Under the pieces are notes generated by a model. That model did no database searches. It was given only the letters and a program-made list of their open reading frames with translations, and was not told the DNA's origin. Both the position numbers and the translations under genes were made by a program. Source: Candidatus Dojkabacteria bacterium (lineage in GTDB: Bacteria > Patescibacteriota > Dojkabacteria > J137). Taken from it: a DNA stretch of 64,000 bases. Where the stretch lies: the NCBI GenBank assembly GCA_040006935.1, contig JBDTVZ010000001.1:18218-82217 (forward strand), given 5' to 3'. Shown piece by piece: positions 18,776 to 37,790 of this stretch; position 1 is the first letter of the stretch; the number at the start of each line of letters is the position of its first letter.

Positions 18776-20416
18776 ATGAAATCTCGTTCAAAAACTTCAT
18801 TTCTTAAATTAGTTATCCCAGTTGTAATTATAGCAGGGATAATGCTTTTTATAACCAAAAGCAGAGCCGAAAACGACTTCAATATTCCAAGTAAGCCGAA
18901 TATTTTACAAGGCTCAGAATGGTGGAATAATGACTTTGCTTTCCGTAAAAAAGTTATTACTTCAAGTGAAATAGATCAGGTAATTAAAATCAATCATTCC
19001 CAAATGGTTATAGATAATAAATCTATCCAGGACGGCAGTGATTTAAGAGTGGTTGCATATGAAGGAACCGAATCAAAAGAAGTTCCAATGGATATTACAA
19101 ACCCAGATACATCCGAAACTTTAATAAATTTCTCAAAATCTAAAAATGTAACAGATGTATATTTATACTATGGTAATAAATCAGATTTACCTGAACCAAC
19201 GATTAGAAGCGAAGACCTCTCAACCTTAAAAGAAAATGCAAGTTTATCGGAAGAAGAAACTCCTGAGTTGCTGGTGACTACTCAAAAAAAATGGAATTTA
19301 AAGGAAAAAGATTCACAGTTAATTCTTCAAGTTGCAGACCAATTAAAGCAAGGAGATACCATTTATTATTATCTTCTTGATAATGAACAAACTCCACGGA
19401 ACATGGAAGTTCAAAATGGTTTTTCGACTATAAATCCAATTGATATTCAGCCTGGTGACCACAATATATTTCTAATCAAAAAATCAGGAGTAAATATTAC
19501 ACGTAGCAATTCTTCTAGATTTATTCTTTCCGAACCTATATATATTGCATGGACTGTTGATTGGGAAGGAATAGACCCAGGAAAACCAAATATAGAAAAT
19601 ATTTCTAAAACTGCTGTTGAGTTTAAAATTCCGATTACACATTTTTTTAGTCCAAGAACAATTATTAGTACAAAAATAACAGAACCAAGAAAAAAGGAAA
19701 TTATAAATTGGATAAAAGATAGAGTAAATAATTTTGGTGATGATCTAGCAATGAATTTACATTTTCAATTTGATTTAGTCGATGCTGCAGGAGTTGACCC
19801 AAAATATTCTGAAAAAACTTGGGATAATGGTATAAGTGGTTACGATATGCCTGGAACAGTTTACGATTATAATGAATATTTAAAAATACTAAATTGGGGA
19901 AAGCAAAAATTAATAGATGCTGGATTACCATCACCAAAAGGTTTTAGAGCAGGCGGTTGGTTTATAAATGATGATAATTTAAGAGCTGTTAAAGATGCAG
20001 GTTTTGTTTATGATTCCTCAGCAATTAAACCCACTGAGCTTGGTGAGAATAAAATGATGCAGGATTGGGAAACAACAAGTATAACCCAACCCTATAAAAT
20101 TTCTCAAAAAGATAAAAATTCTAGCGATGACCCAACCCTAGGAATTCTAGAAGTACCTATAAATGGAGGTGATACCTATATAAATTCTGCTGAGGAAATT
20201 TTACAAAATTTCAAAGATAATTATAGTTACAATACTTACTCGAATACATCGAAATTAATTGTTTATTCTTCAAGCCCAGATTGGTTTGATACTAGTAAAG
20301 ATGGTGTAGAGAATTTATTTGCAACAGTGTCAAATTACAGATATGATAGAGATAGGGGACCAGTTAAATTTATCACGCTAAATGAATGGCTTGATAAAAG
20401 TAATACAGGTAAATAG
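18776..20416 (+). CDS. secreted/anchored protein, possible DUF2341-like N-terminal and polysaccharide-deacetylase-like C-terminal regions
   Basis: N-terminal hydrophobic anchor (FLKLVIPVVIIAGIMLFI). WWNNDFAFRKKVI resembles DUF2341 starts. GFRAGGWFINDDNLRAVKDAGFVYDSS resembles CE4-type deacetylases. Both domain calls are weak. Confidence 0.5.
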   Translation: MKSRSKTSFLKLVIPVVIIAGIMLFITKSRAENDFNIPSKPNILQGSEWWNNDFAFRKKVITSSEIDQVIKINHSQMVIDNKSIQDGSDLRVVAYEGTESKEVPMDITNPDTSETLINFSKSKNVTDVYLYYGNKSDLPEPTIRSEDLSTLKENASLSEEETPELLVTTQKKWNLKEKDSQLILQVADQLKQGDTIYYYLLDNEQTPRNMEVQNGFSTINPIDIQPGDHNIFLIKKSGVNITRSNSSRFILSEPIYIAWTVDWEGIDPGKPNIENISKTAVEFKIPITHFFSPRTIISTKITEPRKKEIINWIKDRVNNFGDDLAMNLHFQFDLVDAAGVDPKYSEKTWDNGISGYDMPGTVYDYNEYLKILNWGKQKLIDAGLPSPKGFRAGGWFINDDNLRAVKDAGFVYDSSAIKPTELGENKMMQDWETTSITQPYKISQKDKNSSDDPTLGILEVPINGGDTYINSAEEILQNFKDNYSYNTYSNTSKLIVYSSSPDWFDTSKDGVENLFATVSNYRYDRDRGPVKFITLNEWLDKSNTGK

Positions 20417-20440
20417 TTTTAAACATTTATCGTTGAAAAG

Positions 20441-20899
20441 GTGATGATTAAATTTATATCAGAATCAAATATATTCGATCTTTTAAACCTGGGCAATCTT
20501 GACGAGGAGAAAAAAAACGACTTATTGCAAAACATGTTAACGATAACTCTAACGAAGAGTGTTTATAATTTCTTCGATGATACAGAGACCTCAATTGCAG
20601 AGTTAAATAGAATAGAAAAGAAAATGGATGAGGCTAAAGACGTAATTAAATTCCAAGAATTCCTACTAAAAAAATACCCTCAATTAAACGACTATATTGC
20701 AGAAGGTACCTACAGCTTTAAAAGAGATGCGTTAGTAAAACAAGTCGAGGCATATATACAAGAGTTGAAACAAGGAGAGCAAAATGAAGATACGACTTAT
20801 AAATTAAAATCTGCGGAGGATTTAGTAAAGTCCATTGATACAGAAAACGAAGAGGAATTCGAAAAGAGTTATCAAATTTATAAACAAGTAAGAAAATAA
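20441..20899 (+). CDS. small acidic helical hypothetical protein (first small gene of giant-protein operon)
   Basis: 152-aa ORF (GTG 20441 or ATG 20444). Lies 24 nt after the upstream gene and 6 nt before the giant ORF. Confidence 0.55.
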   Translation: MMIKFISESNIFDLLNLGNLDEEKKNDLLQNMLTITLTKSVYNFFDDTETSIAELNRIEKKMDEAKDVIKFQEFLLKKYPQLNDYIAEGTYSFKRDALVKQVEAYIQELKQGEQNEDTTYKLKSAEDLVKSIDTENEEEFEKSYQIYKQVRK

Positions 20900-20905
20900 A
20901 ATAAC

Positions 20906-23900
20906 ATGAATAGTGCAATTGCAAAAGCTATCGCAGGACAAGACACTCTTGTTACTCCAGCTAGATTTGATAATAATCAGCAAAAAGACAGAATGAGAAA
21001 TAAAAATGGAGCTGATGGTCGTGGTCTTGTACAAAAGTACGGTATTAATCCTACTGATTTAGCAGCGCTTGAAGCCTATGTTGATGGAAACCTACAACAA
21101 GTACAAATTATAGACCAAGACGCAAATACAATGGAAGCTGATAGATTAAATCAGTCCAGTGGTGGTGAGCAATGGCTTAGAAAACATAAAATTACTAAAT
21201 TTATTGGTAAATTTGGTAAATTTATAGCACCACAAATTGCAGGAATGGGCGTAAGAGCAGCTTTTGGAACAGTAGGTGCAACAGGTGGTCCATTAGTTGC
21301 AGGGGCAATTGGAGGACTTACAGGTGGTTTAAAAGCTGCAGTTGATATTACATTGGCAGGAAGGAATAACACAGACATTGTCGAGTTCTTTGGTAAGAAT
21401 GTAAACGTGGCTGGAGTATTTGAGCAACAGAATAGAGATAAATGGAAAGTAGATAAATTGGCAAGAGGCTGGTTTAATTGGGGAAAAAATTGGGCATTAG
21501 AACCAGTTTATAAATATCAAGAGAGAGAAGATAGGATTTTAAATTTCTTAAGCGATAAAAGGCTAGATTTTTCTAGAGAGGGATATTTCAGAGATCCAAT
21601 GACGGTATTCCCTGTAATGAAGAATCTCCCACTTTCAGATATCCAATTATTTTTGAAAGATTTGTATATACAAGGTACTCTCCTTAGTGCTGTAGGGAGC
21701 AGAAAGGATTTAACACCAGAAGTTAGAAGGATAATCCAAAATTGGATAGACTCATTTTGTGAATTACAACTAATGCTAAATGCTATTTTGTTGAATAGAG
21801 GTTTGCCTTTAACACAAATAGAAGGGATTAGGACTGATGCAACGAAAGAAATAACTTCGTTTAGATCTGCCAAAGGAGAGGCTGCATATGCTCTCAGAAG
21901 AGGCACAACTAATGCAATTCAAAGTGCTGTTTATAATGTAGCATTCCAAACCTTAGTAACAGGTGTTCAAAAATTAGTTACACACTATCAAGGTCTAGTT
22001 ACAATTAATAGAGAGTTAGTTCCAATAAATAACAATGTGGATGCAATGAGGGCAGCTAATCCTCGTTTGGATCAAATAGATCAACAGGTACAGAATTTAC
22101 AGACCCAATTACAACAGACAAACGTAGCTGGTGGGGTTACTAATGTAACCAATCAAGTAGTGCAAAATGTGGCAGGGACTGCAAGAGATAGAGCCCTTTC
22201 ACTCTTTGGTGCAGATTACTTAAATAATGCCGGAATGGGAGAAATGGGAAGGTGGGCAAGAGTTGCAGCAATACAAACTTTTCAAAATCAATATACACCT
22301 CAAGTTGAGAATTTGATTGGAACTTTATCAAGAAACACACACTTAAGCAGAGATGATATCTTAGCCTGGATAATGAATAGAGGGTCTATTGATGGAGCTT
22401 ATCAAGTAGTTGGCGGAGCTTCTATAGTAAATTTAAACGTAACTGATTTACTAACAAGAGCCATAAATGGTCAGTATAATGTTGCATCAATTATTCAAGG
22501 TGCAAATGCAAATGTAGATGCTAGGTGGTTAGATTTAATGAAAAATGGAATGGGACAAATAATTAATCAAGTAACTACTACTAATGTTGCAGGTGCTGGA
22601 TTAACAGATGCTGCACGAGCAAATATTTTTGAGCAAATTGCGAGATTATTAGCTGAGAAAGCTTTAATTGGAGAGAATATTGGGGGAGCTGAATTGCAAA
22701 GAGCAGTAGCTGCTATGGATCCTAACATTTTAAGACAGATATCAGAAGGAAGTGTAAATGTTTTGGATTACTTAATCGATACTGGGTTAATTGTTGCTGG
22801 CGGTGCAATTGGGTTTATAGGTGTTGCAGGTTCTTGGGCAGCAGAAAGTGGGGAATTAGGCACAAGAAGAACTGTTGAAGTTAGAAGAAATATCCCTAAT
22901 CCAAATACTCCTATGCCGCCACCGGTTGGGCCAAATGGTAGACCTTATCCTCAGCCTAACGCGCAACGTGCAGCAGTTTATAATGCAACGCCATATCCAC
23001 AACAAGCTGCGAATCAGCAGCCAGGATTAGCTCCTGTTCCGCAAGGAGGATTAGGTTCAGGTGTTCCAGTTTCAAGCGATGAAACGCTTCATGGTGTCAG
23101 AGCATTGGATGATGCTTCAGCTCAAACAGTCCCATCTGATTTTTTTGCTAACACAAGGCAAAATACCTCCACTCAGCCTATATTAAATAATGCTGTGCCT
23201 CAACAAAATCAACCAGTAGATCAAAATAATCTTGTAGCTAAGATTAATCAAATTATGACTGAGAATTATGACTTGCCTAGAATTATTAATGAGATAATTA
23301 ACAATCCTAGAACAATTACTTTGGACGCTGTTATCCATAACGATAATATATCGAGGCTTTTTGACAAAGCCTTGATCTCGAATTTAGGTATTAAAGAGAA
23401 AGTCTACTATTTAGGAAATGATGGACTAAAAAAAGAAAAAGATATTATGAAATTGATTATTATTAATGACCAATACAATGATATTGTGAAGGATCTAGAC
23501 GCTTGGGGATTAAGTAAAGATCAAATTATCCTTAGACGTATTGTTAATAAACCAGGTGGAGGTGAGGAGGAAGTATTCTACAATATGAAAATAAATAATA
23601 GAAATTATACAATTGAGGAAATAACTGATTCAGGTGTTGAAGTAGGTGGTATTCAATATGGAACACCAAAAGTCACTGACTTAGGCATTGGATTCAATTT
23701 ACTTAGTCAAATAGAAGAAACACAGAAATCTACATCAGTAGGAGAAAATCAAGTAGAAAATAAGGACGAAGATATTATTGCGAGATTTAATATTCCTGAT
23801 TATCCTACTGGAGCTTCTCAGGGTTATCCCGAATCTATAGCAGGAAAAGAAGCAATTATTAATAAAAATTATAAAGAGGAGTATAAATTGCAGCCATATG

Positions 23901-26900
23901 ATGGAGAAGTAGAAAAATATCCACTATTTGATAATGATTACAATGAATTTGACGGAATAATGTTACATAGATTTGAAATTGAAGGTCAAAAATTTGATTT
24001 ATTTATAACTAAAGAAGGTGCAATTTGGTATTTCGATAAAGATAATAATTTTATGAGATTAGAAAATCCTGCAAATGTAGGAGGAACTATTACTTTAGAT
24101 AACGGTGAAGCTTATGAAATAAAATTAGATGCAAATCATAATGTAAGAGTTAAGAAGAACGAAGTTGTTGCAGCACCAGATGTAATTGGTGAGAAGATAA
24201 TTGTAGATGGAGATGAAGTTATCATTAACTCATCAGAAAATTTAAGATTACTTGGCTCTGGAAATAGCTCTATCCCACTTGAATCTTTTGCGATTAAAGA
24301 TGGTAAAGGGAAAATAGAAGAAGACTCAAGGCTATTAGTAATTAATAACCAGAAGTATGTGTTCAGAGATGGGAAAATATATGAAATTAATGGAACAGAG
24401 GTAGTAGAAGATCAAGATGGAACTATCACTATTGAATCATCAAAAGAGCGAGATGTGAAAGTAAAATTATCTAACGGTAAAATAGAAGTATATGAAATTA
24501 TAAAGGGTGATCTTAAATTACCAAAATTGGAAAGAAGAGAATTCCAAGCTAACAGTGTCGAAACGAAGAAACTAAGTTCAGAAGAAAGATTGCAATCACT
24601 AAATGATCAATTAAAAGATAAAAAAATCACTATAGAAAACAAAAATGAGAGTGCAATTACTATTAGTGATTTAGAATTAACACCAGATGAAAAGGCTTTA
24701 CTCCAAGGAAGATTATCTTTGTGGTACGACAGAATTCAAGAAATCAACCCTTTAATCTTAACTGGTCCGTATGATAAAACTTTCAATTTTCAAGAGTATG
24801 GTAATGGTGAAAGTATAGCTGCTGCAATTGTAGAATCTGGTTTTGAAGGAAATAATAATAGTTTAAATCTAGTTGATTTTATAAATAACCCTGACAAATT
24901 GGATATAGCTGATGTAGAAAGAGCTTTGATTAACAAATTTGGATGGAAAGAGGAAAAACAAGCAGAAAATAGAGTGGAAATTATGCTTTATGTTTACCAT
25001 TTAGTTCATGCTGTGGAAGGTGCATTAGGTGGATATTTCGGAGTATATAATCAATTAGAGGCTCTTGATGGTAAAGATATAAAAATTGATATTCAAAATG
25101 ATTCTGGGGCAAATGCTATTCGTTTTGTAGGTAAAGATAATATTAAAGAATTAACACCAGAGAACAAGGCCTTCATTGGCGGTAGAATTACTAAATTATT
25201 TGATATTTCTAGGAAGTTGAATCCTGATATTAGCCCTGAAGACCATCAAACACTTCACTATGACTTTTCAAATGATGGTAATAGGATGCTTAATGCTATT
25301 AGAAAAATTGTTTCTAAAGAGAACGCGGGACCAATATCCTTGTTTAATCTATTAAATGAGATCGAGATTATTGATTTCGGAGAATTATTCCCAACGTTGT
25401 TTATGGAGGGTTGGAAAGACGACAACATGAATGATAATAGAGCAGCAGTTGGTTTAATGCTTTGGCATTTAGCAAATGCAATTGAGGGACAGCTAAGTGA
25501 TAATGAAGTAAAGGGCGAAGACAAAATTTTGGATGTTGACACTGAAATAAAAAAAGACAAGGAATTTGTTGTCAGATTAATCTCTAGCATAAAAGATGTC
25601 ACACCTAAATCTACCTCTGAAGAACGGCTATTCCCGATGGTATTTGAAGCGATTGGCTATAATACTGGAAATAGAGATAACCCAGATTTGCTTGTAACAG
25701 CAATTATTATGGATTCTATTGAGCATTATGCACTTCCAGGATTAGTAAATAGAATAATAGACTTAATGGATATTGATGATGTCGATAGAGAATCCGTGCG
25801 ATTAGGAATTTATACATTTATAGAGGAAAAATTATTAACTAACGATATTGCTGTAGTTCATAAGGACGATGCAAAGACTGCTTTAATTGGACTTGAATCC
25901 AGGAAAACTCTAGAGACACTAGATATTGCTTTAAGTGTCGAAGAAATAAGTAAATTAAATAAAGAAAGTAATGAAGATGAACAAACTAATAATTTAGAAG
26001 TTAACAAGTTCCCGGAGAGTATGGAACTAAACAAGGCATATGAAACTTTAATTCAATGGGATAGAAATCCTTTAAAAGTTGAAATCCCAGTAACTAATGA
26101 GCAAGGGGTAAGTTTTCAGATAAGTTTTAACCATAAAGAATTAGTACCAGCACTTAATGCAGAAGGTCGAATAATGCATAGGGAATTTAACGTTAAGAAC
26201 TCCCAAAATGTTAAGGATTATCCTACTGAGTCTGGGGAATACACGTTGATTTATTCTTTTAGTAAGGTTAAAACATCGGGAGAGGGGATTGAAAGTTTAT
26301 TAATAGAGTATAAAGTTTTAAAGAAAGAAACTCCCGATTCTAAAAATATAGATAAAGTTAAGCTACTAAGAACGATTGAAGAAAAAGAGAAAAACTTAGG
26401 AGAATTACAAGAACAATTACAATCTAATCTAATAAGTAGAGAACTTTATAATGTCAAGAGGAGAGATTTAATGTTTAAAGTAGGAAATGATTGGTTATTA
26501 GTGGGGTTAAAACGATGGCATCTTCATCATCCTGAAAAAGCAGGTACCAAGGACGAATGGGAAATAATTAACCCATACCAAAGGTATCAATTAGAGAGGC
26601 CTATTATTAAAACTAAAGATATTAATGAACCAGACTTTCTTGCCAGCCTAAGTGAGGGTAATGATCAGGTAATCAGAAATCTAGATGCTGAGAAAATAAT
26701 TGGAGAACTTAAGCCAGGAAGACAGTTTGAATCGGATGATAATATCTTTACAGTTATAGAGATTACCCCAAACGGAGTATTTAGAACAAAAAGGCAATCA
26801 AGGAAAGGGGGAATAGAAGTATCTCTAAATTTTGCAAGAGAAAATCTATTGGAATATTTTACAGAAGGAAGGTTGAGAACTATTGAAAATATTAATGTAA

Positions 26901-27463
26901 ACGAAAATAAAAAGAAAGTAGATGAAATTGTTATCTCATTAGAAAAAAATAAAGAACTAATTGAAAGATTAACTATCAATGACAGATTCAGAAGAAAAAC
27001 CACAAATACTACTTACACAATCGAAGATAATGATGGTGATAGTTTGGTAGTAATAGAAAGCACTGCTCGAACAGAAACTCCTATGTTTTTAAGAAAAAGC
27101 ATTTTGCTTGAATGGTTGCTTAACGATGATGTGGAGATGTTAGAGCCAGAAGATAATTCTGAATATGAAAAAACTGTTGAAAACTTAAAGAAAGGGGATG
27201 AATTTACCTACAACGGAAACAAGTACGTGGTTTTACCTAGTATCTCAGGTTATCGTGGGATAGTTGGCGGTAACATAGATAAGCGAAGCGATGTGAAGAG
27301 ATTTCCATCTGGGACCTTTATGAGATTTTTAAAGGAAGGAGTAGTTAAGATTGAAAGTACGAATGAAGAGATAACGCAACAAGTTGCAAAAGGAGTAAAG
27401 GAAGCTCAGAGAAGTCCAACAGCTATTCTAAAGGAAATAGCAGATACTTATGAAGATTTATAA
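20906..27463 (+). CDS. giant protein 1 (2185 aa), unknown family
   Basis: Uninterrupted 6.5-kb ORF. Gly-rich hydrophobic segments at 21221..21362 and 22772..22853, a Pro/Gln-rich linker at ~22885..23230, then a K/E/I/N-rich body with internal duplications (24780-25030 vs 25255-25500) and three C-terminal ~60-aa repeats (26702..27357). Confidence 0.8.
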   Translation: MNSAIAKAIAGQDTLVTPARFDNNQQKDRMRNKNGADGRGLVQKYGINPTDLAALEAYVDGNLQQVQIIDQDANTMEADRLNQSSGGEQWLRKHKITKFIGKFGKFIAPQIAGMGVRAAFGTVGATGGPLVAGAIGGLTGGLKAAVDITLAGRNNTDIVEFFGKNVNVAGVFEQQNRDKWKVDKLARGWFNWGKNWALEPVYKYQEREDRILNFLSDKRLDFSREGYFRDPMTVFPVMKNLPLSDIQLFLKDLYIQGTLLSAVGSRKDLTPEVRRIIQNWIDSFCELQLMLNAILLNRGLPLTQIEGIRTDATKEITSFRSAKGEAAYALRRGTTNAIQSAVYNVAFQTLVTGVQKLVTHYQGLVTINRELVPINNNVDAMRAANPRLDQIDQQVQNLQTQLQQTNVAGGVTNVTNQVVQNVAGTARDRALSLFGADYLNNAGMGEMGRWARVAAIQTFQNQYTPQVENLIGTLSRNTHLSRDDILAWIMNRGSIDGAYQVVGGASIVNLNVTDLLTRAINGQYNVASIIQGANANVDARWLDLMKNGMGQIINQVTTTNVAGAGLTDAARANIFEQIARLLAEKALIGENIGGAELQRAVAAMDPNILRQISEGSVNVLDYLIDTGLIVAGGAIGFIGVAGSWAAESGELGTRRTVEVRRNIPNPNTPMPPPVGPNGRPYPQPNAQRAAVYNATPYPQQAANQQPGLAPVPQGGLGSGVPVSSDETLHGVRALDDASAQTVPSDFFANTRQNTSTQPILNNAVPQQNQPVDQNNLVAKINQIMTENYDLPRIINEIINNPRTITLDAVIHNDNISRLFDKALISNLGIKEKVYYLGNDGLKKEKDIMKLIIINDQYNDIVKDLDAWGLSKDQIILRRIVNKPGGGEEEVFYNMKINNRNYTIEEITDSGVEVGGIQYGTPKVTDLGIGFNLLSQIEETQKSTSVGENQVENKDEDIIARFNIPDYPTGASQGYPESIAGKEAIINKNYKEEYKLQPYDGEVEKYPLFDNDYNEFDGIMLHRFEIEGQKFDLFITKEGAIWYFDKDNNFMRLENPANVGGTITLDNGEAYEIKLDANHNVRVKKNEVVAAPDVIGEKIIVDGDEVIINSSENLRLLGSGNSSIPLESFAIKDGKGKIEEDSRLLVINNQKYVFRDGKIYEINGTEVVEDQDGTITIESSKERDVKVKLSNGKIEVYEIIKGDLKLPKLERREFQANSVETKKLSSEERLQSLNDQLKDKKITIENKNESAITISDLELTPDEKALLQGRLSLWYDRIQEINPLILTGPYDKTFNFQEYGNGESIAAAIVESGFEGNNNSLNLVDFINNPDKLDIADVERALINKFGWKEEKQAENRVEIMLYVYHLVHAVEGALGGYFGVYNQLEALDGKDIKIDIQNDSGANAIRFVGKDNIKELTPENKAFIGGRITKLFDISRKLNPDISPEDHQTLHYDFSNDGNRMLNAIRKIVSKENAGPISLFNLLNEIEIIDFGELFPTLFMEGWKDDNMNDNRAAVGLMLWHLANAIEGQLSDNEVKGEDKILDVDTEIKKDKEFVVRLISSIKDVTPKSTSEERLFPMVFEAIGYNTGNRDNPDLLVTAIIMDSIEHYALPGLVNRIIDLMDIDDVDRESVRLGIYTFIEEKLLTNDIAVVHKDDAKTALIGLESRKTLETLDIALSVEEISKLNKESNEDEQTNNLEVNKFPESMELNKAYETLIQWDRNPLKVEIPVTNEQGVSFQISFNHKELVPALNAEGRIMHREFNVKNSQNVKDYPTESGEYTLIYSFSKVKTSGEGIESLLIEYKVLKKETPDSKNIDKVKLLRTIEEKEKNLGELQEQLQSNLISRELYNVKRRDLMFKVGNDWLLVGLKRWHLHHPEKAGTKDEWEIINPYQRYQLERPIIKTKDINEPDFLASLSEGNDQVIRNLDAEKIIGELKPGRQFESDDNIFTVIEITPNGVFRTKRQSRKGGIEVSLNFARENLLEYFTEGRLRTIENINVNENKKKVDEIVISLEKNKELIERLTINDRFRRKTTNTTYTIEDNDGDSLVVIESTARTETPMFLRKSILLEWLLNDDVEMLEPEDNSEYEKTVENLKKGDEFTYNGNKYVVLPSISGYRGIVGGNIDKRSDVKRFPSGTFMRFLKEGVVKIESTNEEITQQVAKGVKEAQRSPTAILKEIADTYEDL

Positions 27464-27465
27464 CT

Positions 27466-28485: not shown

Positions 28486-28505
28486 ATCTCTTCTATAGTT
28501 CTAAA

Positions 28506-31500: not shown

Positions 31501-33941
31501 CTCAAATCCTTGAAACAATAATAGGCTTTAAGATCGAAGGTTTAGATCTAGCTAAGAACTTTGTTGTATTTGGAATGATAATAAACTTTGCAAATAACTT
31601 ACGCGAATTAAAGAACAAAAGGTCTAAAGACTCTCAAGAAGAAATAAATATTGCTATAACTGAACTGCAGAATAAAATAAATAGAATTAAATCTGGCGAA
31701 TTAACAGAAGAAGAAATGCAATTTGAAATGTCTAATGAAAATGTATTGAAGATTTTAATGCACATGACCTCCGGAACTTTACCCAAAGAATATCTAGTAT
31801 TTACAATATTGATGTTGATTACTTCTGGTGTTGAAATTGCTGGAGTTAGAAACGTTTTAAAACTTGATCAAATTATAAAAAACCAAAGAGGAGATGATAT
31901 TGGAGTTCCGTATTTAAAGTATAGAGAGGAAATACTTGAAGTAAAAGCCACAGGAAATGTGATGGCACTACAAGAAGTTATTATAAAAAACGTAAGCATG
32001 TTAATCAACTACATGAGAAATTTTCATAATTACGAGGATTACTCCGAAGATTTTTTAGTAATGTGTAAATTATTGAACCTTAAAGAAGGTGAGTTCTCTA
32101 CCAACTGTTTTGGTATAGGGCTAATTTATCAAGCCATACTTGACTTAATGATTGGTGATATTTGTGAGATTAATTATGCAACTCTCCATCACGAATTAGG
32201 TAATGATATTGAAGACTGGTTTAAAAATCTGGGTGAAATAGTTATGGCGGGTCATGCTGTATTCATTATTAAACTTCCACTTATAGATGGAGAGGAAAAT
32301 AAATATATCATTGGAGATCCACTAAGTGTGATTAACAGCTTAGCTCAAAAAAATAAAAGAAAACCTTTAGACAAACATCATAATTGCATGGTTGTAAAGG
32401 AGTCCGAACTTATGCTAGACAATGAGATTAATTCTGTTCTTGAAAATACAAAATTCGTTACTATAGATCCTAATAAAAAAATCCGAATAGTTCAGAAAGA
32501 TAATAAAGAAATACAAATGAAGATAGATCCTAATGATGTTTATCAAGTATATAAAGACAGGAATTCTATTTTAACCTATGCAATGATTAGTTCCTTCAGA
32601 GATTTAAATGGCTACTTAACAACCATAGCGCCAGATGAAGGTGAAGTATTAATGGATATGATTACAGATTCAAAATATAAAGGAGATAGAAACAAAGCAT
32701 TTGAGAAGTATATGCTTTTATATAATAGATATTCAGGATTTGAATATAGATCTACAAACTCTAATCAAGTAATAGCATCGAATATAATATTATTAAATTT
32801 TGCTCTTGAAAATGATTATTATATTGAAGCTTTGTTCCTGGCCAATGTAAATAAAATAAAATTAGCCAAACTATATCCAGACAAAGACGACTACGATGAA
32901 TCTTTAATTTTCGATACGCAAAAAGCATTTATACTTACAAAAATAGCCAATCTCGATGAGACAGAAATCCTAAAATTAATTGAAGATAAAAAATATCTTT
33001 TAAGAAAAGAAGATATTACACTTATCTGGGAAAATGTCTCCTTTATAAATTTAACATTGCGTTTATTTAATGAAACAAAAGAGGATCAAAAAAGAACTCT
33101 AAAATTACTATCTTCTGAGTCACTTTACTATTTGATTTTTGATCCACTAAGATACAATAATATCCAGGAAATGAAAGACTTATGTAAAGAGATATTAAAA
33201 GTTGCTTTGGAAAATGATTATTTACCATATTCAGCTTATATTATAGAAAAACTAGTTAAGTTAAGTCCCGAAGACGAAACTCTGAAATTAGTAGAAGATA
33301 AGATTATAAAATTCATTGCTAAAACCGATAACTATATAATACTTACACAACTAAATCCACATTTAATTTTCTCAAAATTTATAGACAAAATTCATAAAGT
33401 TTTAGAAGTTAGTTTTGAGATACCAACTATCCAATCAATTTTAAACATATTGAATGGAGTGAAGGATGATAAAGTTATTGATGATCAATACGAAAGTCTT
33501 CACAAAGTATTAAGTAGTAATCACACTGCACTTGATAGAGCTGCTTATCGACATAAAGTTGAAGAAGAAAAAAGAATAGTTGCAGCTGTAGAGGCAAACA
33601 CTCATAGAATTGAGGAGATAAATAATCAAGTAAAAACTGAAGTGAGGTCAGGAGGGCAATCCTACCAATCCCTGCATCAAGAAGAAAAACCCCTTGAACT
33701 TGGAGACAACTATATAAAAATAACTGAAGAGGCTGTTTTCGGATCGATTGATCTACTCGTGAGTAAATATGGTGAACTCTCAGGAGACATAATGGCTCTA
33801 TTTCTTCGAGGAGCTGATGAAACAGTAATTCGTCTAGCAGAGAATAATTTGAGGAAGAAAGGAATATTACTTCCATCACCCGAAAATGCAGCTAAAAGGT
33901 TACAAGGACAAAATCTCCCATTGTTACAATCGAATTCTTAA
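28506..33941 (+). CDS. giant protein 2 (1811 aa), unknown family, no obvious TM or signal peptide
   Basis: Uninterrupted 5.4-kb ORF. Candidate papain-like Cys..His..Asp arrangement at ~32100..32335. C-terminal helical repeats (ALENDYYIEALF / ALENDYLPYSAYI). Confidence 0.8.
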   Translation: MQYDEIKQTQNNNLTEIQRERELKAAQLRAQNASTILNKKINRSSFSNSAKEVKPFDYLERLECSMTLDRVDSERNGTNINTQIINCDYSTEIDSKGREIIKMTVPHRLDFLALNLNPGSVFIFDRSNYRLLSIEQKDQQKVVNSVEVWPHVEILSIDKILFTFSDLLNKEKIVAFESLENNVMRLKKGPFDGFPNKIYFQKYNLENPIFIEDYDEIKKAYHAPGQGSFIDVDYNMAIKAFNQASNILETEDRTADFQYPEVLRLFSKLKIAFAKDLIPNENPHDTVFELRLRNELNIDGVHIYAGAVMKIDVNDPEFFTIKYPPQNGVQIEFIEINGTKLYAPGEILCRNTSEDLQITSINGGQLENMGSERVIKIIKANNGFIGLVANDEVIKFTKDHKVLTLLSNVDPSVQILISDIMKNRYFLHDIYSDNYLEGAIELVSNHTGSLATIIFEDEQPGNIIIPNYPNIHPSLHGLAIGQFDRLILDKKGEFAIFGVATERYDMHFRGVWYERIERIFINFRTGEVRFRCDSYFEGGKRYGQTKYSENTYIIVDNLGLKQTGDGIFSEVENNVPKGDDYKDHISRTLKIKEIRIGDMRQLNEDRIDITASFDSIVLNNQENPTLHNWIYAQAPFGSIVNFNSKNSIIESIEVPYDTYIKSGGIRASLGSSFKISGIRKVLFEEDSQNFPLDVKELKGEITITLNNKIYRAKDISVNSLGLKLDKFPLITWEVIYNGATELPDELLVENNSVNIPTKNEILYLANRLTVQVNNRKPEDDFDLEQNVNSLIGLTRWLYESANKLGGPFNLAEWVTIYKPLLYYYYNDPEAVILLIMGFIPNSNGNIDPIDYMFLYATYLEIFKQRYPEVESELILLLSSLNPDLKFIYKNEIKDIISNFEILEDENKQHFLDELDSINMDTPSHIPVPVSHSQVEGFKADQFSIEKGFLKFNEEPKAIDLLQRIGNLRELSTSSELDKQIEIIKENGSRIDMNVVGQISQILETIIGFKIEGLDLAKNFVVFGMIINFANNLRELKNKRSKDSQEEINIAITELQNKINRIKSGELTEEEMQFEMSNENVLKILMHMTSGTLPKEYLVFTILMLITSGVEIAGVRNVLKLDQIIKNQRGDDIGVPYLKYREEILEVKATGNVMALQEVIIKNVSMLINYMRNFHNYEDYSEDFLVMCKLLNLKEGEFSTNCFGIGLIYQAILDLMIGDICEINYATLHHELGNDIEDWFKNLGEIVMAGHAVFIIKLPLIDGEENKYIIGDPLSVINSLAQKNKRKPLDKHHNCMVVKESELMLDNEINSVLENTKFVTIDPNKKIRIVQKDNKEIQMKIDPNDVYQVYKDRNSILTYAMISSFRDLNGYLTTIAPDEGEVLMDMITDSKYKGDRNKAFEKYMLLYNRYSGFEYRSTNSNQVIASNIILLNFALENDYYIEALFLANVNKIKLAKLYPDKDDYDESLIFDTQKAFILTKIANLDETEILKLIEDKKYLLRKEDITLIWENVSFINLTLRLFNETKEDQKRTLKLLSSESLYYLIFDPLRYNNIQEMKDLCKEILKVALENDYLPYSAYIIEKLVKLSPEDETLKLVEDKIIKFIAKTDNYIILTQLNPHLIFSKFIDKIHKVLEVSFEIPTIQSILNILNGVKDDKVIDDQYESLHKVLSSNHTALDRAAYRHKVEEEKRIVAAVEANTHRIEEINNQVKTEVRSGGQSYQSLHQEEKPLELGDNYIKITEEAVFGSIDLLVSKYGELSGDIMALFLRGADETVIRLAENNLRKKGILLPSPENAAKRLQGQNLPLLQSNS

Positions 33942-35911
33942 ACTTGCGGTGGAACAGCTGAAACTTCTGTAGTAACAGGTTGTTCAATAGGCTGTGCTTG
34001 AGGAGTTACATTATCTGTTGGTAGAACTGTTCCTGGTTGTTCTAATGGTGGAGCCGAAGAAATATCTAACTGATCTCCTTCTTCATTTTCTACTTTCTGT
34101 TGAAGTAACTCATTAGGGTTTGTAGTTATCAAATTATGCTCATTTTGACTTGCAACAATTTGTATAGCAACATGATTAGCCCCAGCAAAAAATAATCCTT
34201 GTCCAATTCCTGCAGACATTAAAAAAGACTTTTCACCATCTGTAAGATAGAATACTTTCTTTAATTTATCTATCGCAGCTGGTGCTTGCTTCAATAATAT
34301 CTGCATGGATGAGTTATTAATTATTGCTTTACCATAATCTGAAGCTAAGAAGTCATCAACATCTTGTGTAATAGTTGTTAGACCTAATGCATATTTTCTA
34401 GCTCTCTTAGCAATTGAGTATACAAACTTGGCAGCATCTTCGTATTGCATCATAATCCAAGCTTCATCAATTATTAATAATCTTTTCCTCTTATCTCTTT
34501 TAATCTTGGTCCAAATGTAATCAAGCATTACATACATGGCCATTGGTCTTAAATCATCAGCTAAATCACGAATTGAAAATACTGTAAATGTATTGTGAAT
34601 GTTAACCGTGGATTTCCTATCAAACACACCAGATGCGGAACCTTTTAAATATTTTTCTAATCTACGAGCCATTGAATGGGATTCATCTTCCGACATTGCA
34701 TTTAAAATCTTATACAAATCTTCTAACAAAGGAGCTTCGTTTGAATGTGTTGATGGATCGGGTGTGATACCTTTTTCTTTGTACGTTAATATTAAAGCTC
34801 TATCTAAAATTGCTGCTTCCTCTGCAGTTACTGTTCCACCCAACATCATTCTAATTAATCCAGAGAGAGTTAAAATTTTAAATCGGAGTTCATCTTCATC
34901 AGCGTTAAATATCCCAGATAATTCAAAGGGATTCAATTTCTGAGCACCGTCTTGCGAGAATGATATATATTCTCCACCAACTGCATCACATAATCTATCA
35001 AATTCTTTTTCTGGGTCTATAATAATAATGTCAATTCCAAGCATTAAGGACCTCACAGCTTCCAATTTAACTGCATAGGATTTACCAGCTCCGGATGTAG
35101 CCAAAACGACTGAGTTAGCATTAGGAAGTGAAAATCTATCGAAAATAACTAAAGAATTATTATGAAGATTAACCCCATATAAAACTCCTTTATCCATTGT
35201 TAACTCACTACTGACGAATGGGAAAGTTGTAGCAATGGCAGTAGTATCCAAGTTTCTGGTCATATTTATTTTATCAAGACCATATGGAATTGTGCTTTGG
35301 AAACATTCTTCTTGTTGAAGTGTAGCAACTTTAATAATAATTCCAATCGTTGCCATTGTGCTCTCCAGATTCTTTGAAATTTTATCTAACTCTTCCATAG
35401 TATCTGCATGCAATGTTACGTACAAGGCATATTGGAAGAATTTTTCGTTCCCAGCGGCAAGCTGTTCTTGCAAAGTTAATGCATCTTTAAGTTGTACTGC
35501 AACAATAGGATCTCCTTGTCTACCTGCTTCAATTTCAATATTTATTGTTGCCTGAAACTCTGCAATTTTTCTTTTTAAGATTTTTAATATTTCACCAGTT
35601 TCAAAAGGATAATAATAAGTGCTGATGTCTACGGGATATTCAAAGTTAATTAATGGTTCTAACCAACTAGGAGAAACAACACTAGGAAAGCCGATAGCAA
35701 AATATGATCTAAAATACTTATTCCCTATTATTAAATTACTGAAGTTAACCTCAATGGCACTTGGTGCAATAATGTCTTTAACATCAATTAATCCTTGAGC
35801 AAATTTCTGAATAGATTGGTTCTCTCGAGCCAAAGCAGCAGCTTCTTGAGGGTTTATAGGTTTTGTACCTTTTTTAGGTTTTGCGTCTGGTATTAATCCG
35901 AATAAAGCCAT
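33938..35911 (-). CDS. virB4: VirB4/TrbE-class type IV secretion ATPase (C-terminal ~3/4 of a typical VirB4)
   Basis: YFRSYFAIGFPSVVSPSWLEPL, Walker A VVLATSGAGKSYAVK, IIIDPEKEF, NPFEL, Walker B RLLIIDEAWIMM, RKYALGLTTITQDVDDF, NSSMQILLKQ. Pro/Gln-rich C-terminal tail. Confidence 0.85.
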   Translation of the reverse strand: MALFGLIPDAKPKKGTKPINPQEAAALARENQSIQKFAQGLIDVKDIIAPSAIEVNFSNLIIGNKYFRSYFAIGFPSVVSPSWLEPLINFEYPVDISTYYYPFETGEILKILKRKIAEFQATINIEIEAGRQGDPIVAVQLKDALTLQEQLAAGNEKFFQYALYVTLHADTMEELDKISKNLESTMATIGIIIKVATLQQEECFQSTIPYGLDKINMTRNLDTTAIATTFPFVSSELTMDKGVLYGVNLHNNSLVIFDRFSLPNANSVVLATSGAGKSYAVKLEAVRSLMLGIDIIIIDPEKEFDRLCDAVGGEYISFSQDGAQKLNPFELSGIFNADEDELRFKILTLSGLIRMMLGGTVTAEEAAILDRALILTYKEKGITPDPSTHSNEAPLLEDLYKILNAMSEDESHSMARRLEKYLKGSASGVFDRKSTVNIHNTFTVFSIRDLADDLRPMAMYVMLDYIWTKIKRDKRKRLLIIDEAWIMMQYEDAAKFVYSIAKRARKYALGLTTITQDVDDFLASDYGKAIINNSSMQILLKQAPAAIDKLKKVFYLTDGEKSFLMSAGIGQGLFFAGANHVAIQIVASQNEHNLITTNPNELLQQKVENEEGDQLDISSAPPLEQPGTVLPTDNVTPQAQPIEQPVTTEVSAVPPQV

Positions 35912-35926
35912 ATTTTTAATTCTTAA

Positions 35927-36601
35927 TTAGCTGGATCTAACAATTCCAGTAGAAACATCAGAATCTCTAAGATTAAGTATCTCAAGACCCAATTTATCTG
36001 GTTCGTACACAGAGTAATATAGTTTTATTAATTCATCATTTGTTAATTGTTTTGCTGCTACACCCATATTCTGATATTGTTTAATTATCGAATCCCTTTT
36101 TGGATATAACTCCTCTTTAGCCTTTTCTACAATTCTTGTTACATGGGCAATTCTTTCAGGTGTTCCAAAAGTTTCTTTAAACCAGTTATTTTTTATAACA
36201 GGTAAATTTAAACTTGGAATCACAGTATAAAATCTTTTATCTAGAATCTGAGTTGTTTGTGTTAGGTTATTTATGAAGTCCTGGTACAAAGAAACCTGTT
36301 CTGTTACAGCAGTCGAAGTAATTTTCGATTTATAACTTTCTAGAAGTTTTAAATAATTTGCAATGTCAGTTCTTTGAGTTTTAATTACAATTTGTACTGG
36401 GAAATTTGTAGCATTTAAAAATGCAGCAAAAGATCCGATTTTAGCATCTTGTTCCGGTCCATCAAGTAAATCAAAATTAAGCGAAGTAGTTTCTATCACA
36501 ATAGACACTTTTCCACTTTTCAGTACAACCATATCATCTTTAATATCTGCGATATCTAAATGCTCCTGCGTGCTAATTCTTTTTGGATCGAAAATACCCA
36601 T
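35927..36601 (-). CDS. stand-alone VirB4 N-terminal-domain-like protein (apparent split VirB4, part 1)
   Basis: TQEHLDIADIKDDMVVLKSGKVSIVIETTSLNFDLLDGPEQDAKIGSFAAFLNATNFPVQIVIKTQRTDIANYL follows my recollection of the N-terminal pattern of Gram-positive VirB4 homologues. Lies 15 nt upstream of the ATPase ORF. ATG 36601 preferred over TTG 36622. Confidence 0.5.
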   Translation of the reverse strand: MGIFDPKRISTQEHLDIADIKDDMVVLKSGKVSIVIETTSLNFDLLDGPEQDAKIGSFAAFLNATNFPVQIVIKTQRTDIANYLKLLESYKSKITSTAVTEQVSLYQDFINNLTQTTQILDKRFYTVIPSLNLPVIKNNWFKETFGTPERIAHVTRIVEKAKEELYPKRDSIIKQYQNMGVAAKQLTNDELIKLYYSVYEPDKLGLEILNLRDSDVSTGIVRSS

Positions 36602-36761
36602 AATACAATTAAAAGTTCTCAATTAAAAATTAAAAGATTTCTCCTTCAACTATAACAGTATATAGTAAATAGCTGAAAGGATACAATAGGAAATTATTAA
36701 GGACCTATAGCATTAGTCAATAGAAGTTAATCAAAGAATCTAAAAATTTGGGACTGGTTAT

Positions 36762-36834: not shown

Positions 36835-37383
36835 TTGAAATGTATGCCTTCTCCAGAAGAATCAGAAAAATTATTATTAGAATATATACAAAATGAGTCA
36901 TTGTTGAATCATTGCAGAATGGTTGCGAAAGCAATGGGAGCTTATGCAAAATCTTTAAATCTTTCCGAAAATGAAGTAGAGGAATGGTACACAGCAGGAT
37001 TATTACACGACTTAGATTGGGAAAAATTTCCTGATGAACACCCGAATAAGGCTGTAAACGAAATACTTCCAGCAAAAGGTTATCCTGAGAATGTAATTCT
37101 TGCTGTTAAAGCACACGGACCTCAAAGAACTGGTAAATATCCAGAAACTAAAATCGAAAAATACTTATTTGCATGCGATGAACTATCTGGATTTCTAAAT
37201 GCATCGTCCTTAATGAGGCCTACAAAATTCGAAGGTATGGAAGTTAAATCGGTAAAGAAAAAATTAAAAGATAAGCATTTTGCAGCTAATGTAAGCAGAG
37301 AGGATATAGAAGAAGGAGCAAGATTAATTGAGAGACCAATTGAGGAGCATATTCAGTTTTTGATAAATGTGTTTAATAATTAA
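36835..37383 (+). CDS. HD domain-containing phosphohydrolase
   Basis: NHCRMVAKAM...AGLLHDLDWEKFPDEHP (H..HD motif), then KAHGP. Confidence 0.75.
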   Translation: MKCMPSPEESEKLLLEYIQNESLLNHCRMVAKAMGAYAKSLNLSENEVEEWYTAGLLHDLDWEKFPDEHPNKAVNEILPAKGYPENVILAVKAHGPQRTGKYPETKIEKYLFACDELSGFLNASSLMRPTKFEGMEVKSVKKKLKDKHFAANVSREDIEEGARLIERPIEEHIQFLINVFNN

Positions 37384-37392
37384 AACTATTAT

Positions 37393-37463
37393 GGACCGCC
37401 GAACTATTGCGCGAGAATTGGCGGTATGACCTCACCCTAACCCTCTCCTTGAAAGGAGAGGGA
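37393..37463 (+). repeat. GC-rich two-hairpin dispersed repeat, copy A
   Basis: GGACCGCC-loop-GGCGGTATGACCTCACCCTAACCCTCTCCTTGAAAGGAGAGGG. Homologous copies at 46885..46956 and 62216..62288 (opposite orientation) and a diverged copy at 63673..63764. Confidence 0.8.
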
Positions 37464-37700: not shown

Positions 37701-37742
37701 AAGCTAATAAATTCGCTAAGATTTATAGCAGTATAGCAATAA

Positions 37743-37770: not shown

Positions 37771-37790
37771 TTTAAACTTCTAAAAAGAAA

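Follow-up and report, generated by a model that had tools for sequence, protein, structure and literature searches.

We propose, tentatively and with a probability of roughly 0.4, that a giant protein of an uncultured Dojkabacteria bacterium (candidate phyla radiation, CPR) and the small acidic protein encoded directly upstream of it make up a two-gene module, in which the large protein would be exported to the envelope or host interface and the small one would be its cytoplasmic, chaperone-like partner. Giant protein 1 is a real gene: the single open reading frame called in an earlier, sequence-only reading of this 64,000-nt stretch (the window) holds, and its translation is identical to a protein annotated in a Candidatus Dojkabacteria MAG (Table 1). 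It has no match in Pfam, PHROGs, NCBIfam or the PDB sequences, and searches against families, the PDB and folds revealed neither an export signal or secretion-system motif nor any chaperone fold that is known.

The large protein would leave the cytoplasm, and its site of action is probably the cell envelope or host interface. Its moderately hydrophobic helices would embed in the cell's own membrane or in the host's, the Pro- or Gly-rich spacer would traverse the wall, and the fast-changing, variable, acidic, cysteine-free C-terminal arm would be the contact part. The translationally coupled partner would act as a chaperone or targeting factor, holding the hydrophobic N-domain soluble and away from the SRP/Sec route until export.

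Table 1. Giant protein 1, its segments and its neighbours, in window coordinates
Feature	Position	Strand	Remarks
546-aa protein	18776..20416	+	First gene of same-strand block; N-terminal signal-anchor-type segment
Partner gene	20441..20899	+	152 aa; acidic, pI 4.7; helical by composition; no hydrophobic segment
Giant protein 1	20906..27463	+	2185 aa; NCBI locus tag ABI721_00240, 'hypothetical protein', Candidatus Dojkabacteria MAG
N-terminal tail	20906..21220	+	aa 1-105; basic, pI 9.3; weakly conserved; no signal peptide
Glycine-zipper segment	21221..21361	+	aa 106-152; A/G-rich; two lobes around invariant Pro129
Helical N-terminal domain	21362..22759	+	aa 153-618; conserved; HMMER matches to P0002/P0003, alignments A1 and A2
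Second hydrophobic helix	22760..22846	+	aa 619-647; core LIVAGGAIGFIGVAGSWAA; sole borderline transmembrane candidate
Low-complexity linker	22886..23230	+	aa 661-775; P/Q/N-rich (41.7% P+Q+N)
Beta-hairpin-motif-rich region	23906..24550	+	aa 1001-1215; motif enrichment
Duplicated module, copy A	24659..25066	+	aa 1252-1387; C-terminal end NRVEIMLYVYHLVHAVEGAL
Duplicated module, copy B	25127..25519	+	aa 1408-1538; C-terminal end NRAAVGLMLWHLANAIEGQL
C-terminal region	25520..27460	+	aa 1539-2185; acidic, Cys-free
339-aa ORF	27466-28485	+	Gap of 2 nt from giant protein 1; orphan, singleton cluster
Giant protein 2	28506-33941	+	1811 aa; gap of 20 nt from 339-aa ORF; orphan, singleton cluster
Split VirB4	33938..36622	-	Convergent; TrsD-like N-terminal domain 35927-36622, VirB4 ATPase 33938-35911

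A rare, fast-evolving family with a linked partner

The family to which giant protein 1 belongs, as its expanded member, is very rare and known so far from Dojkabacteria and one low-GC lineage. HMMER, run exhaustively over 1.84 billion representatives, returned only two relatives, P0002 and P0003, which align to the N-terminal domain over query residues 88-416 and 88-718, respectively. All relatives have an N-terminal domain of ~650-700 aa followed by a low-complexity linker; their C-terminal parts can be as short as about 120 aa (P0003 and locus L059) or as long as about 1470 aa. Further along the chain, aa 1101-1442 are homologous to P0002 (E 3e-30). Members of the second lineage retain the C-terminal domain (78% identity) instead of swapping it.

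A partner homologue of ~152-155 aa lies directly 5′ of the family member in each of the four contexts, 1-9 nt away; here, 6 nt separate the partner stop from the start of giant protein 1, and the partner itself likely starts at the ATG at 20444. The homologues at L055:972-1439 and L056:9535-9999 are 32% (E 7e-19) and 28% (E 9e-16) identical, respectively, and that at L059:6987-7451 was detected by the profile of the partner alignment (A3), in which an FDLL.L motif is invariant and the members have pI values of 4.6-5.5. Family databases and the PDB gave no match to the partner. The gene does not feature in the sequence-only reading. A conserved small acidic partner is more typical of specialised-export substrates than of Sec-inserted membrane proteins.

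Between the two Dojkabacteria, the N-domain is only 23% identical (22% over aa 142-416 by BLASTP) and the partner 32%, compared with 68% for the upstream 546-aa gene. Values of dN/dS are 0.16 (large protein) and 0.13 (partner) versus 0.03-0.06 in ClpC, ADK, SWIB and RibD_C; the family, although under purifying selection, changes several times as fast as the genes around it.

Domain architecture

The three-part layout read from the sequence, in which a low-complexity spacer joins an N-terminal domain bearing the hydrophobic segments to a modular, acidic arm, is kept in the relatives; the topology attached to it fared less well (see below). Residues 1-770 are rich in G/A/Q/N/V, as described (43.6% versus 27.4% in the remainder). 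Conservation of the N-terminal domain is highest at aa ~160-420, with the motifs GKNxALE and ERED (alignments A1 and A2). AF2 places helices at aa ~201-320 with pLDDT 70-87, and its models are unusable overall (pLDDT 33 and 49). The Pro/Gln linker is present as proposed, its position in P0002, P0003 and L059 being likewise taken by a P-rich or G/P-rich linker, and the C-terminal part is K/E/I/N-rich, as claimed, and acidic.

Several internal repeat families had been proposed for the arm, and one significant duplication remains. This module (Smith-Waterman score 146, z = 20.9, matched by 0/500 shuffles) has a unit of about 130 aa, not the ~80 aa first given, and occurs also in P0002, at aa 1133-1269 as numbered in the open frame L055:1440-5426, whose start precedes that of P0002 by 3 codons. 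What had been called beta-hairpin repeats proved to be an enriched pattern (9 observed versus 2.0 expected; 6/1000 shuffles) and not a repeat family, the best off-diagonal score within aa 1001-1215 being 34 against 29.2 +/- 4.6 in shuffles, which is not significant; the AF2 model has strands of low confidence in this region, which is homologous to P0002 from aa 1101 onward. Three supposed C-terminal repeats of ~60 aa were not significant, with pairwise z values of -0.6, 1.6 and -0.1 and nothing remarkable in an all-against-all window scan. For aa 1539-2185 as a whole, no homologue was detected and no repeats were significant.

Marginal hydrophobicity and cysteine depletion

Both glycine-rich hydrophobic stretches of the earlier description exist: FIAPQ...TLAG corresponds to the glycine-zipper segment, and LIDTGL...AAE lies at aa 623-647 (22772-22846). 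Five overlapping [GAS]xxxGxxx[GAS] motifs fall within aa 124-145 of the first, a clustering common to all homologues, and I107, P109, G113, P129, A134 and G136 are invariant in alignment A1; pLDDT here is about 26 in the AF2 model. As transmembrane segments, the two stretches are less convincing. We scored them by additive Hessa sums over 19-residue and short 12-17-residue windows, a simple approximation rather than a trained topology predictor, by which the Gly segment looks cytoplasmic-like (+6.1 kcal/mol over 19 residues, +1.88 over 13; KD maximum 1.36) and the second helix only borderline (+2.1 kcal/mol for aa 628-646 over 19 residues, -0.11 over 13; KD 1.89); aa 628-646 are the most hydrophobic stretch of the protein. 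In short windows, genuine membrane proteins encoded in the same stretch of genome score -1.1 to -6.5 and cytoplasmic enzymes at least +1.08. Both segments are only marginally hydrophobic, lying between the cytoplasmic and the genuine membrane proteins of the same genome. Secreted transmembrane effectors of T3SS and T4SS that escape SRP have an intermediate range of hydrophobicity, and chaperones can prevent their mistargeting (reviewed in PMC12981334); the segments of giant protein 1 fall in that reported range, which we count for export.

The counterpart of the second helix in the closest homologue, P0002, reads ILALGTEPAKFIEALALFG and is not hydrophobic; those in P0003 and L059 are. Net charge is +5 over the 20 residues preceding the Gly segment; on the flanks of the second helix it is -2 before and +1 after, with an RR..RR pattern. 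Judged by these flank charges, an N-in/C-out anchor is not favoured.

Of the 2185 residues of giant protein 1, 1 is Cys (P about 1e-5 versus the window background), and P0002 contains 0 in 1326 aa; giant protein 2, with 9 in 1811 aa, is at background level. This strong depletion resembles that of membrane or exported proteins encoded in the window, where the proteins with no Cys at all include MgtC, RmuC, both ABC transporters and the 546-aa protein with its signal anchor. Cysteine exclusion fits an extracytoplasmic location for much of giant protein 1; as a sign of location it is suggestive and not specific. The claim of a membrane-inserted N terminus with an extracellular arm agrees with this exclusion and sits poorly with the marginal hydrophobicity, the unfavourable charges and the N terminus itself, at which no signal peptide was found.

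Gene neighbourhood

The 546-aa protein, whose hydrophobic segment at aa 9-27 has a Hessa score of -0.01, found no family match; its homologue (L055:2-955) precedes the partner-giant pair in the second Dojkabacteria MAG too. Neither the 339-aa ORF nor giant protein 2 gave a family, PDB or locus match. The split VirB4 matches NF045971 (CD1110 family; E 4.8e-118), TrsD (E 2.5e-6) and PF19044, is conserved in 54 CPR loci and has a VirB2-pilin-like gene nearby (37791-38156). The block fills a variable slot between tgt and virB4: in L010 and L026 the syntenic position lacks all 15 kb of it (18776-33941) and contains a single unrelated gene.

VirB4 adjacency is not conserved, and we treat it as suggestive context only. 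Short family members have SWIB on one side and adenylate kinase on the other and lack a VirB4 gene within 10 kb, and in most Dojkabacteria TrsD-VirB4 is flanked by unrelated housekeeping genes. In the closest relative, L001, a giant ORF is convergent on virB4 and has a very weak module-like match (5.7 bits). Pfam and NCBIfam profiles of T4SS components gave no match to giant protein 1, and the window contains no recognisable T4SS signal or coupling protein and no T3SS or T6SS genes.

Comparison with known systems

Small dedicated chaperones are encoded upstream of the T3SS translocators IpaB, SipB and YopB (IpgC, SicA and SycD), and T6SS prePAAR effectors pair with Eag chaperones; these secretion-system substrates, whose transmembrane hairpins are moderately hydrophobic, are the nearest known parallel. 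Giant protein 1 resembles these proteins in its tightly coupled, ~150-aa acidic partner directly upstream, its bilobed hydrophobic region of intermediate hydrophobicity, its long helical regions and its fast evolution. It is, however, several times larger; searches gave no similarity in sequence or fold to any of these families, and T3SS and T6SS genes are missing from the window.

LXG, Rhs and CdiA-type toxins combine a conserved N-terminal trafficking region with a variable C terminus. Giant protein 1 likewise has a conserved N-domain, a C terminus that varies in length and sequence and closely linked small genes. Unlike the toxins, it has no recognisable toxin, PAAR, LXG, Rhs or FHA domain and no identifiable immunity gene nearby, and the C-terminal domain of the second lineage is conserved rather than exchanged.

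Alternative explanations

It is doubtful that giant protein 1 is an integral membrane protein inserted by Sec/YidC, with a cytoplasmic N terminus, the Gly-zipper and second helix spanning the membrane, the spacer spanning the wall and an adhesin arm of ~1500 aa outside. The conserved order of hydrophobic helix, Pro/Gly-rich spacer and outer domain would suit such a protein, as would the acidic, Cys-free, fast-evolving arm and the hydrophobicity peak at aa 628-646, and surface adhesins are essential for cultivated Saccharibacteria (PMC10633639). Yet there is no signal peptide, the segment scores of -0.11 and +1.88 lie outside the range of real transmembrane segments here (-1.1 or lower), the second helix of P0002 is not hydrophobic, and basic residues follow the second helix rather than precede it; a weak anchor 620 residues in would have to drive about 1540 residues across, and a dedicated cytoplasmic partner is unexpected for a Sec substrate. 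The missing signal peptide and the cytoplasmic-range Hessa score of the Gly segment would also suit a soluble cytoplasmic giant (for instance a scaffold, or a protein associated with nucleic acids or the cytoskeleton) with its A/G-rich stretches buried and its linker as a flexible tether. Such a protein could have long helical regions and an N-terminal part as basic as this one (pI about 9), and the second-lineage neighbours are cytoplasmic housekeeping genes, but we consider it unlikely given a strong Cys exclusion unlike that of the window's cytoplasmic proteins and giant protein 2, the conserved glycine-zipper hairpin, the Pro-rich spacer, the high evolutionary rate and the C terminus of variable length.

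For the export that we prefer, T4SS is only a candidate route. The chromosomal T4SS of Patescibacteria is of MPF-FATA type, with TrsD and VirB4, VirB2-like pilins and no relaxase, and protein export has been proposed for it (PMC12102498; PMC10633639). The specific account in which giant protein 1 is a substrate or translocator of this system, delivered to the host envelope with the 152-aa protein as secretion chaperone or adaptor, is quite unlikely. The TrsD-VirB4 pair, convergent, and the pilin-like gene adjoin the block, the relaxase-less CPR systems have no known substrates, the moderate transmembrane hydrophobicity and two-lobed hairpin recall T3SS/T4SS transmembrane effectors (PMC12981334), and L001 repeats the convergent arrangement. 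Against this, the window lacks a recognisable signal or coupling protein, the VirB4 linkage is not conserved in the second lineage, housekeeping genes flank TrsD-VirB4 in most Dojkabacteria, and the L001 match amounts to 5.7 bits. Highly improbable is mobile-element cargo inserted adjacent to virB4, whether a tape-measure-like phage protein accompanied by its chaperone or, from a conjugative element, a 'polyvalent protein'. Tape-measure proteins have an A/G/Q-rich composition, hydrophobic Gly-rich segments and a small acidic chaperone encoded upstream, and giant protein 1 resembles them in being very long, in its helical, A/G/Q/N-rich composition, in its Gly-rich hydrophobic segments and in the small acidic gene upstream; the absence of the block from L010 and L026 would also agree. 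However, no PHROG tape-measure family was matched, with E values of up to 1 allowed, tblastn against 50,697 phage and 72,556 plasmid records gave nothing, and IMG/VR gave no match either; no ORF of the block matches an integrase, relaxase or phage structural family, no phage genes lie nearby, GC3 and codon usage are those of host genes, and the second-lineage synteny, with housekeeping genes, is stable and vertical.

Base composition

The N-terminal part is higher in GC, as had been observed (0.384 for aa 1-770 versus 0.319 for the remainder), which had hinted at a mosaic origin. Comparison of the two parts gave GC3 values of 0.212 and 0.224, respectively, and equal synonymous codon usage (chi-square p = 0.78). 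Because these agree, the GC excess is an amino-acid effect, and the idea of a mosaic origin is therefore refuted; the GC3 of giant protein 1 is that of its housekeeping neighbours.

A giant orphan gene in a five-gene block

Giant 1 is a real gene and, with respect to known families, an orphan. Its open reading frame is intact, encodes 2185 residues and is an exact match to the NCBI 'hypothetical protein' ABI721_00240, which a Candidatus Dojkabacteria MAG (candidate phyla radiation (CPR), Patescibacteria) carries on a contig of 516,739 bp. The window, with a GC content of about 31%, is cellular DNA, and the neighbouring genes are ordinary chromosomal ones: pheS, tgt, asnS/aspS-like, miaA, CTP synthase and ABC transporters. 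Five same-strand genes, with giant 1 as the third, form a block with intergenic gaps of 24, 6, 2 and 20 nt. The 3′ end of this block is convergent with a split VirB4, made up of a 231-aa TrsD-like N-domain and a CD1110-family VirB4 ATPase (E 4.8e-118). A promoter and terminator scan of this AT-rich DNA gave counts equal to those from shuffled sequence.

Neither giant 1 nor its four block neighbours returned anything meaningful in Pfam, PHROGs or NCBIfam, at strict and lax thresholds and with single proteins as well as alignment members, and PDB sequence and profile searches returned nothing for any of them. The 546-aa protein that opens the block is signal-anchored, free of cysteine and without a known domain; it also precedes the partner–giant pair in a second Dojkabacteria MAG. 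The 339-aa ORF and giant 2 form singleton clusters without family, PDB or locus match, and a genome-collection scan with the 339-aa ORF found nothing. Giant 1 and giant 2 have no similarity to each other.

Coordinates of the features discussed (window nucleotides unless a locus or residues are named)
Feature	Position	Strand	Remark
Block gene 1, 546-aa protein	18776–20416	+	signal-anchored
Block gene 2, partner, 152 aa	20441–20899	+	acidic
Block gene 3, giant 1, 2185 aa	20906–27463	+	
Block gene 4, 339-aa ORF	27466–28485	+	
Block gene 5, giant 2, 1811 aa	28506–33941	+	
Split VirB4	33938–36622	−	231-aa TrsD-like gene and 657-aa ATPase gene
Intergenic stretch	37392–37695		between HD-domain and pilin-like genes
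Pilin-like protein, 121 aa	37791–38156	−	
pheS	14803–16602	−	599 aa
Collagen-repeat protein	52201–53220	+	
Giant 1, Gly segment	aa 106–152		A/G-rich, two lobes
Giant 1, second helix	aa 619–647		
Giant 1, linker	aa 661–775		41.7% P+Q+N
Giant 1, duplicated module	aa 1252–1387 and 1408–1538		Smith–Waterman 146, z = 20.9
Partner homologue	L055:972–1439		32% identity, E 7e-19
Partner homologue	L056:9535–9999		28% identity, E 9e-16
Partner homologue	L059:6987–7451		
K/E/N/D-rich ORF, at least 745 aa	L001:8571–10807	−	cut by contig end

Composition and internal repeats

The sequence-only reading had described giant 1 as a mosaic with a GC-richer, G/A/Q/N/V-rich first part of about 770 residues, two hydrophobic segments, a P/Q/N linker and several internal repeat families, and this description is partly correct. 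The compositional split holds: the G/A/Q/N/V share is 43.6% in aa 1–770 against 27.4% in the remainder, and GC is 0.384 against 0.319. Both hydrophobic segments and the linker also lie where they had been placed. The suspected mosaic origin fell. The GC excess of aa 1–770 is confined to codon positions 1 and 2, with GC3 (0.212 versus 0.224) and synonymous codon usage (p = 0.78) the same in the two parts, so that the GC step reflects amino-acid content. Across the whole block, GC3 equals that of pheS, virB4 and other housekeeping genes. GC3 and codon usage thus rule out a mosaic or foreign origin.

The proposed repeat families reduce to one. Significant internal similarity is limited to a single duplication of about 130 aa, whereas the three supposed C-terminal units of about 60 aa behave like shuffled sequence (z = −0.6, 1.6 and −0.1). 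The region read as beta-hairpin repeats is enriched in a hairpin-type pattern (9 observed, 2.0 expected) without any repeated sequence.

A rare family defined by an N-domain and a partner

An exhaustive HMMER search of 1.84 billion representatives with aa 1–1200 of giant 1 yielded two relatives and no more. One, P0002 (1326 aa, cut by the contig end; E 5.7e-13 over query aa 88–416), comes from another Dojkabacteria MAG; the other, P0003 (819 aa; E 4.8e-8 over query aa 88–718), is encoded on Logan/ENA contigs that reach 48.7 kb. A 465-kb contig (locus L059) encodes a protein of 822 aa closely related to P0003. Word-index homologue searches with the whole of giant 1 recovered only itself, and those with aa 1–660 and with the N-terminal alignment A2 recovered nothing; low-complexity words probably interfere. 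Neither A2 nor the partner alignment retrieved anything from the metagenome collection, and an IMG/VR scan with the N-terminal alignment A1 and tblastn against phage and plasmid records were likewise negative.

All members have in common an N-terminal part of about 650–700 aa, in which an A/G hairpin with six invariant residues (I107, P109, G113, P129, A134 and G136) and the motifs GKNxALE and ERED are accompanied by a long helical region and then by a Pro- or Gly/Pro-rich linker. The length after the linker varies from about 120 aa (P0003 and the L059 protein) through at least 590 aa (P0002) to about 1470 aa (giant 1). Residues 1101–1442 of giant 1, including the duplicated module, are also present in P0002 (E 3e-30).

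Directly upstream of every family member lies a homologue of the 152-aa partner, and so what is conserved is a module of two genes and not just the giant gene. The partners are acidic (pI 4.6–5.5), lack hydrophobic segments, are rich in helix-forming residues and have a common FDLL.L motif. The partner stop lies 6 nt before the giant 1 start, and the gap is 1 nt in L056, a locus that encodes a short member; no obvious Shine–Dalgarno sequence is present at the partner–giant 1 junction. The definition of this rare module of partner and N-domain is a new result; its function is an inference.

This module evolves fast under purifying selection. Between two Dojkabacteria, the 546-aa gene product is 68% identical, the partner 32% and the N-domain 23% (alignment A1; 22% by BLASTP over aa 142–416). 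Between the two loci with short members, L056 and L059, the large protein is 75% identical (dN/dS 0.16) and the partner 82% (dN/dS 0.13), compared with 90–98% for ClpC, ADK, SWIB and RibD_C (dN/dS 0.03–0.06). Within the large protein, change is fastest in the linker and the N-tail.

Hydrophobic segments, cysteine content and structure

On an additive Hessa scale calibrated on proteins of the same window, which is not a trained predictor, the segments of giant 1 are intermediate in hydrophobicity. With windows of 12–17 residues, genuine membrane or signal-anchored proteins (MgtC, ZIP, ABC transporter, RmuC, pilin-like and 546-aa proteins) score −1.1 to −6.5 kcal/mol and cytoplasmic enzymes +1.08 kcal/mol or higher. 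The second helix (best at aa 628–646) scores −0.11 kcal/mol in a 13-residue window and +2.1 in a 19-residue window; the Gly segment scores +1.88 kcal/mol in 12–17-residue windows and +6.1 in a 19-residue window. The corresponding helix of P0003 and the L059 protein is hydrophobic; that of the closest homologue, P0002, is not. The proposed glycine-zipper character of the first segment is genuine as a motif cluster, with five overlapping [GAS]xxxGxxx[GAS] matches in aa 124–145, and P0002, P0003 and the L059 protein have corresponding clusters. A motif match of this kind is no proof of membrane insertion.

Giant 1 has no N-terminal signal peptide. The Gly segment is preceded by a net charge of +5 and the second helix by one of −2, and the second helix is followed by a net charge of +1 (RR..RR); basic residues follow this helix in homologues as well. 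Under the positive-inside rule, such flanking charges lend no support to an N-in/C-out anchor.

Monoderm bacteria are known to exclude cysteine from their exported proteins. Giant 1 has a single cysteine among its 2185 residues, located within the first 300, against a window background of 0.65% (P ~1e-5), and P0002 has none in 1326 residues. Cysteine-free proteins of the window include MgtC, RmuC, two ABC transporters and the signal-anchored 546-aa protein. Giant 2, by contrast, has nine cysteines, the background level. This pattern supports an extracytoplasmic fate for giant 1, not for giant 2. Giant 2 also has no convincing hydrophobic segment and, unlike giant 1, is probably cytoplasmic.

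Structure prediction added little. An AF2 model of aa 986–2185 from a single sequence was unusable (pLDDT 33), and a model of aa 88–364 from three sequences (pLDDT 49) was confident only at aa ~201–320, a helical bundle; the Gly hairpin reached a pLDDT of about 26. In a Foldseek search of the PDB the best match had an E of 0.13, with TM-scores below 0.3.

The chromosomal slot beside virB4

Across 54 VirB4 loci, VirB4 identity is 72–93% in Dojkabacteria and 43–47% across other CPR, and none of these loci holds relatives of the five block genes. At two fetched CPR loci (L010 and L026), only one gene, an unrelated one, separates virB4 from tgt/pheS, which places the 15-kb block in a variable slot. 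The closest relative (L001, VirB4 90% identical) has a different K/E/N/D-rich ORF, convergent on virB4, that is not similar to giant 2 and resembles giant 1 in only one 5.7-bit module-like stretch. This comparison suggests that virB4 adjoins a hypervariable slot for giant genes.

Elsewhere in Dojkabacteria, TrsD–VirB4 lies among uvrA, mfd, dsbA-like, trmA-like, murG and vanW-like genes. The genes for the short members are flanked by a SWIB gene and adenylate kinase, and within 10 kb of them no VirB4 is encoded. The link of the family to a T4SS is circumstantial, since adjacency to VirB4 is present in the window and absent in this second lineage. Giant 1, the partner, the 339-aa ORF and giant 2 gave no Pfam or NCBIfam match to the T4SS components VirB6/TrbL/PrgH, VirB8/PrgL, VirB1/PrgK and VirB3/PrgI or to the adhesin PrgB.

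The split VirB4 pair itself is kept in at least 33 of the fetched CPR loci, and in Dojkabacteria it stands among housekeeping genes, not in a compact T4SS cluster. Near it, the 121-aa pilin-like protein has a signal-peptide-like N terminus (…TPAFA/QT) and two strongly hydrophobic helices, the layout of VirB2-like pilins reported near virB4 in Patescibacteria, and matches no family.

Interpretation

The best-supported reading is that giant 1 would be an exported, membrane-active protein of the envelope or host interface with a dedicated cytoplasmic partner. It draws on the hydrophobic-hairpin N-domain, the wall-spanner-like linker, the variable, acidic, Cys-free arm, the obligatory partner, the intermediate hydrophobicity and the fast evolution. 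The model of the sequence-only reading, a simple transmembrane anchor carrying an extracellular arm, is a less probable alternative; against it stand the marginal hydrophobicity, the distribution of charges, the second helix that is not conserved and the very existence of the partner. The strong exclusion of cysteine makes a purely cytoplasmic role less likely. If giant 1 were nonetheless just a lineage-specific cytoplasmic orphan, it would be an ordinary finding, CPR genomes being full of unannotated large genes.

A phage or mobile-element origin is rejected given the lack of any PHROG, phage, plasmid or IMG/VR match and the host-like GC3 and codon usage, and a phage tape-measure protein given the lack of a PHROG tape-measure match even at E up to 1 and the neighbours tgt, pheS and virB4. 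The variable C-terminal length of the family is compatible with polymorphic toxin systems; giant 1 has no toxin or trafficking domain, and the 339-aa ORF downstream belongs to no known family.

For an exported giant 1, a T4SS route is the most interesting possibility, although the evidence points to it weakly. The T4SS of Patescibacteria is chromosomal, relaxase-less and of the MPF-FATA type; Southlakia cannot grow as an epibiont without it, neither its function nor its substrates are known, and no secretion signal for it has been defined in the literature (PMC12102498; PMC10633639; PMC11665869). The partner and giant 1 could form the first recognisable chaperone–substrate (or translocator) pair of such a system, a proposal that we regard as a long shot. 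In the cytoplasm, the small acidic partner would keep the glycine-zipper hairpin covered. Export driven by VirB4 would then bring the N-domain into the host-cell membrane, where it might form an anchor or conduit, and the hypervariable arm would fix host specificity.

Episymbiotic CPR bacteria need physical contact with a host, and the proteins that make this contact are, like the substrates of relaxase-less T4SS, largely unknown. With its specific organisation of a membrane-active-looking N-domain, an obligatory small partner and a length-variable Cys-free arm, the giant 1 family is a concrete candidate for an envelope or host-interface function in a lineage without a cultured member. The short form (~820 aa with a 154-aa partner) is far easier for biochemistry than the 2185-aa protein.

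Other features of the window

The pheS product, the PheRS alpha subunit, has an extra N-terminal region that matches the C-terminal part of the class II AlaRS family (PF01411, aa 24–97); the pheS open frames of L010 and L026 encode only 341 aa. A further gene encodes collagen triple-helix repeats together with a BclA C-terminal domain, an exosporium-type glycoprotein architecture, here in a CPR genome.

Finally, the intergenic stretch of about 300 nt is by eye markedly GC-richer than the genome (the 1-kb bin 37001–38000 has a GC of 0.374). It belongs to no Rfam family, is not a tmRNA and was not matched by blastn in the syntenic loci L001 and L023. On both strands its predicted folding is much more stable than that of shuffled sequence (z = −5.2 on the minus strand and −4.0 on the plus strand), and it is a candidate for an unclassified structured RNA.
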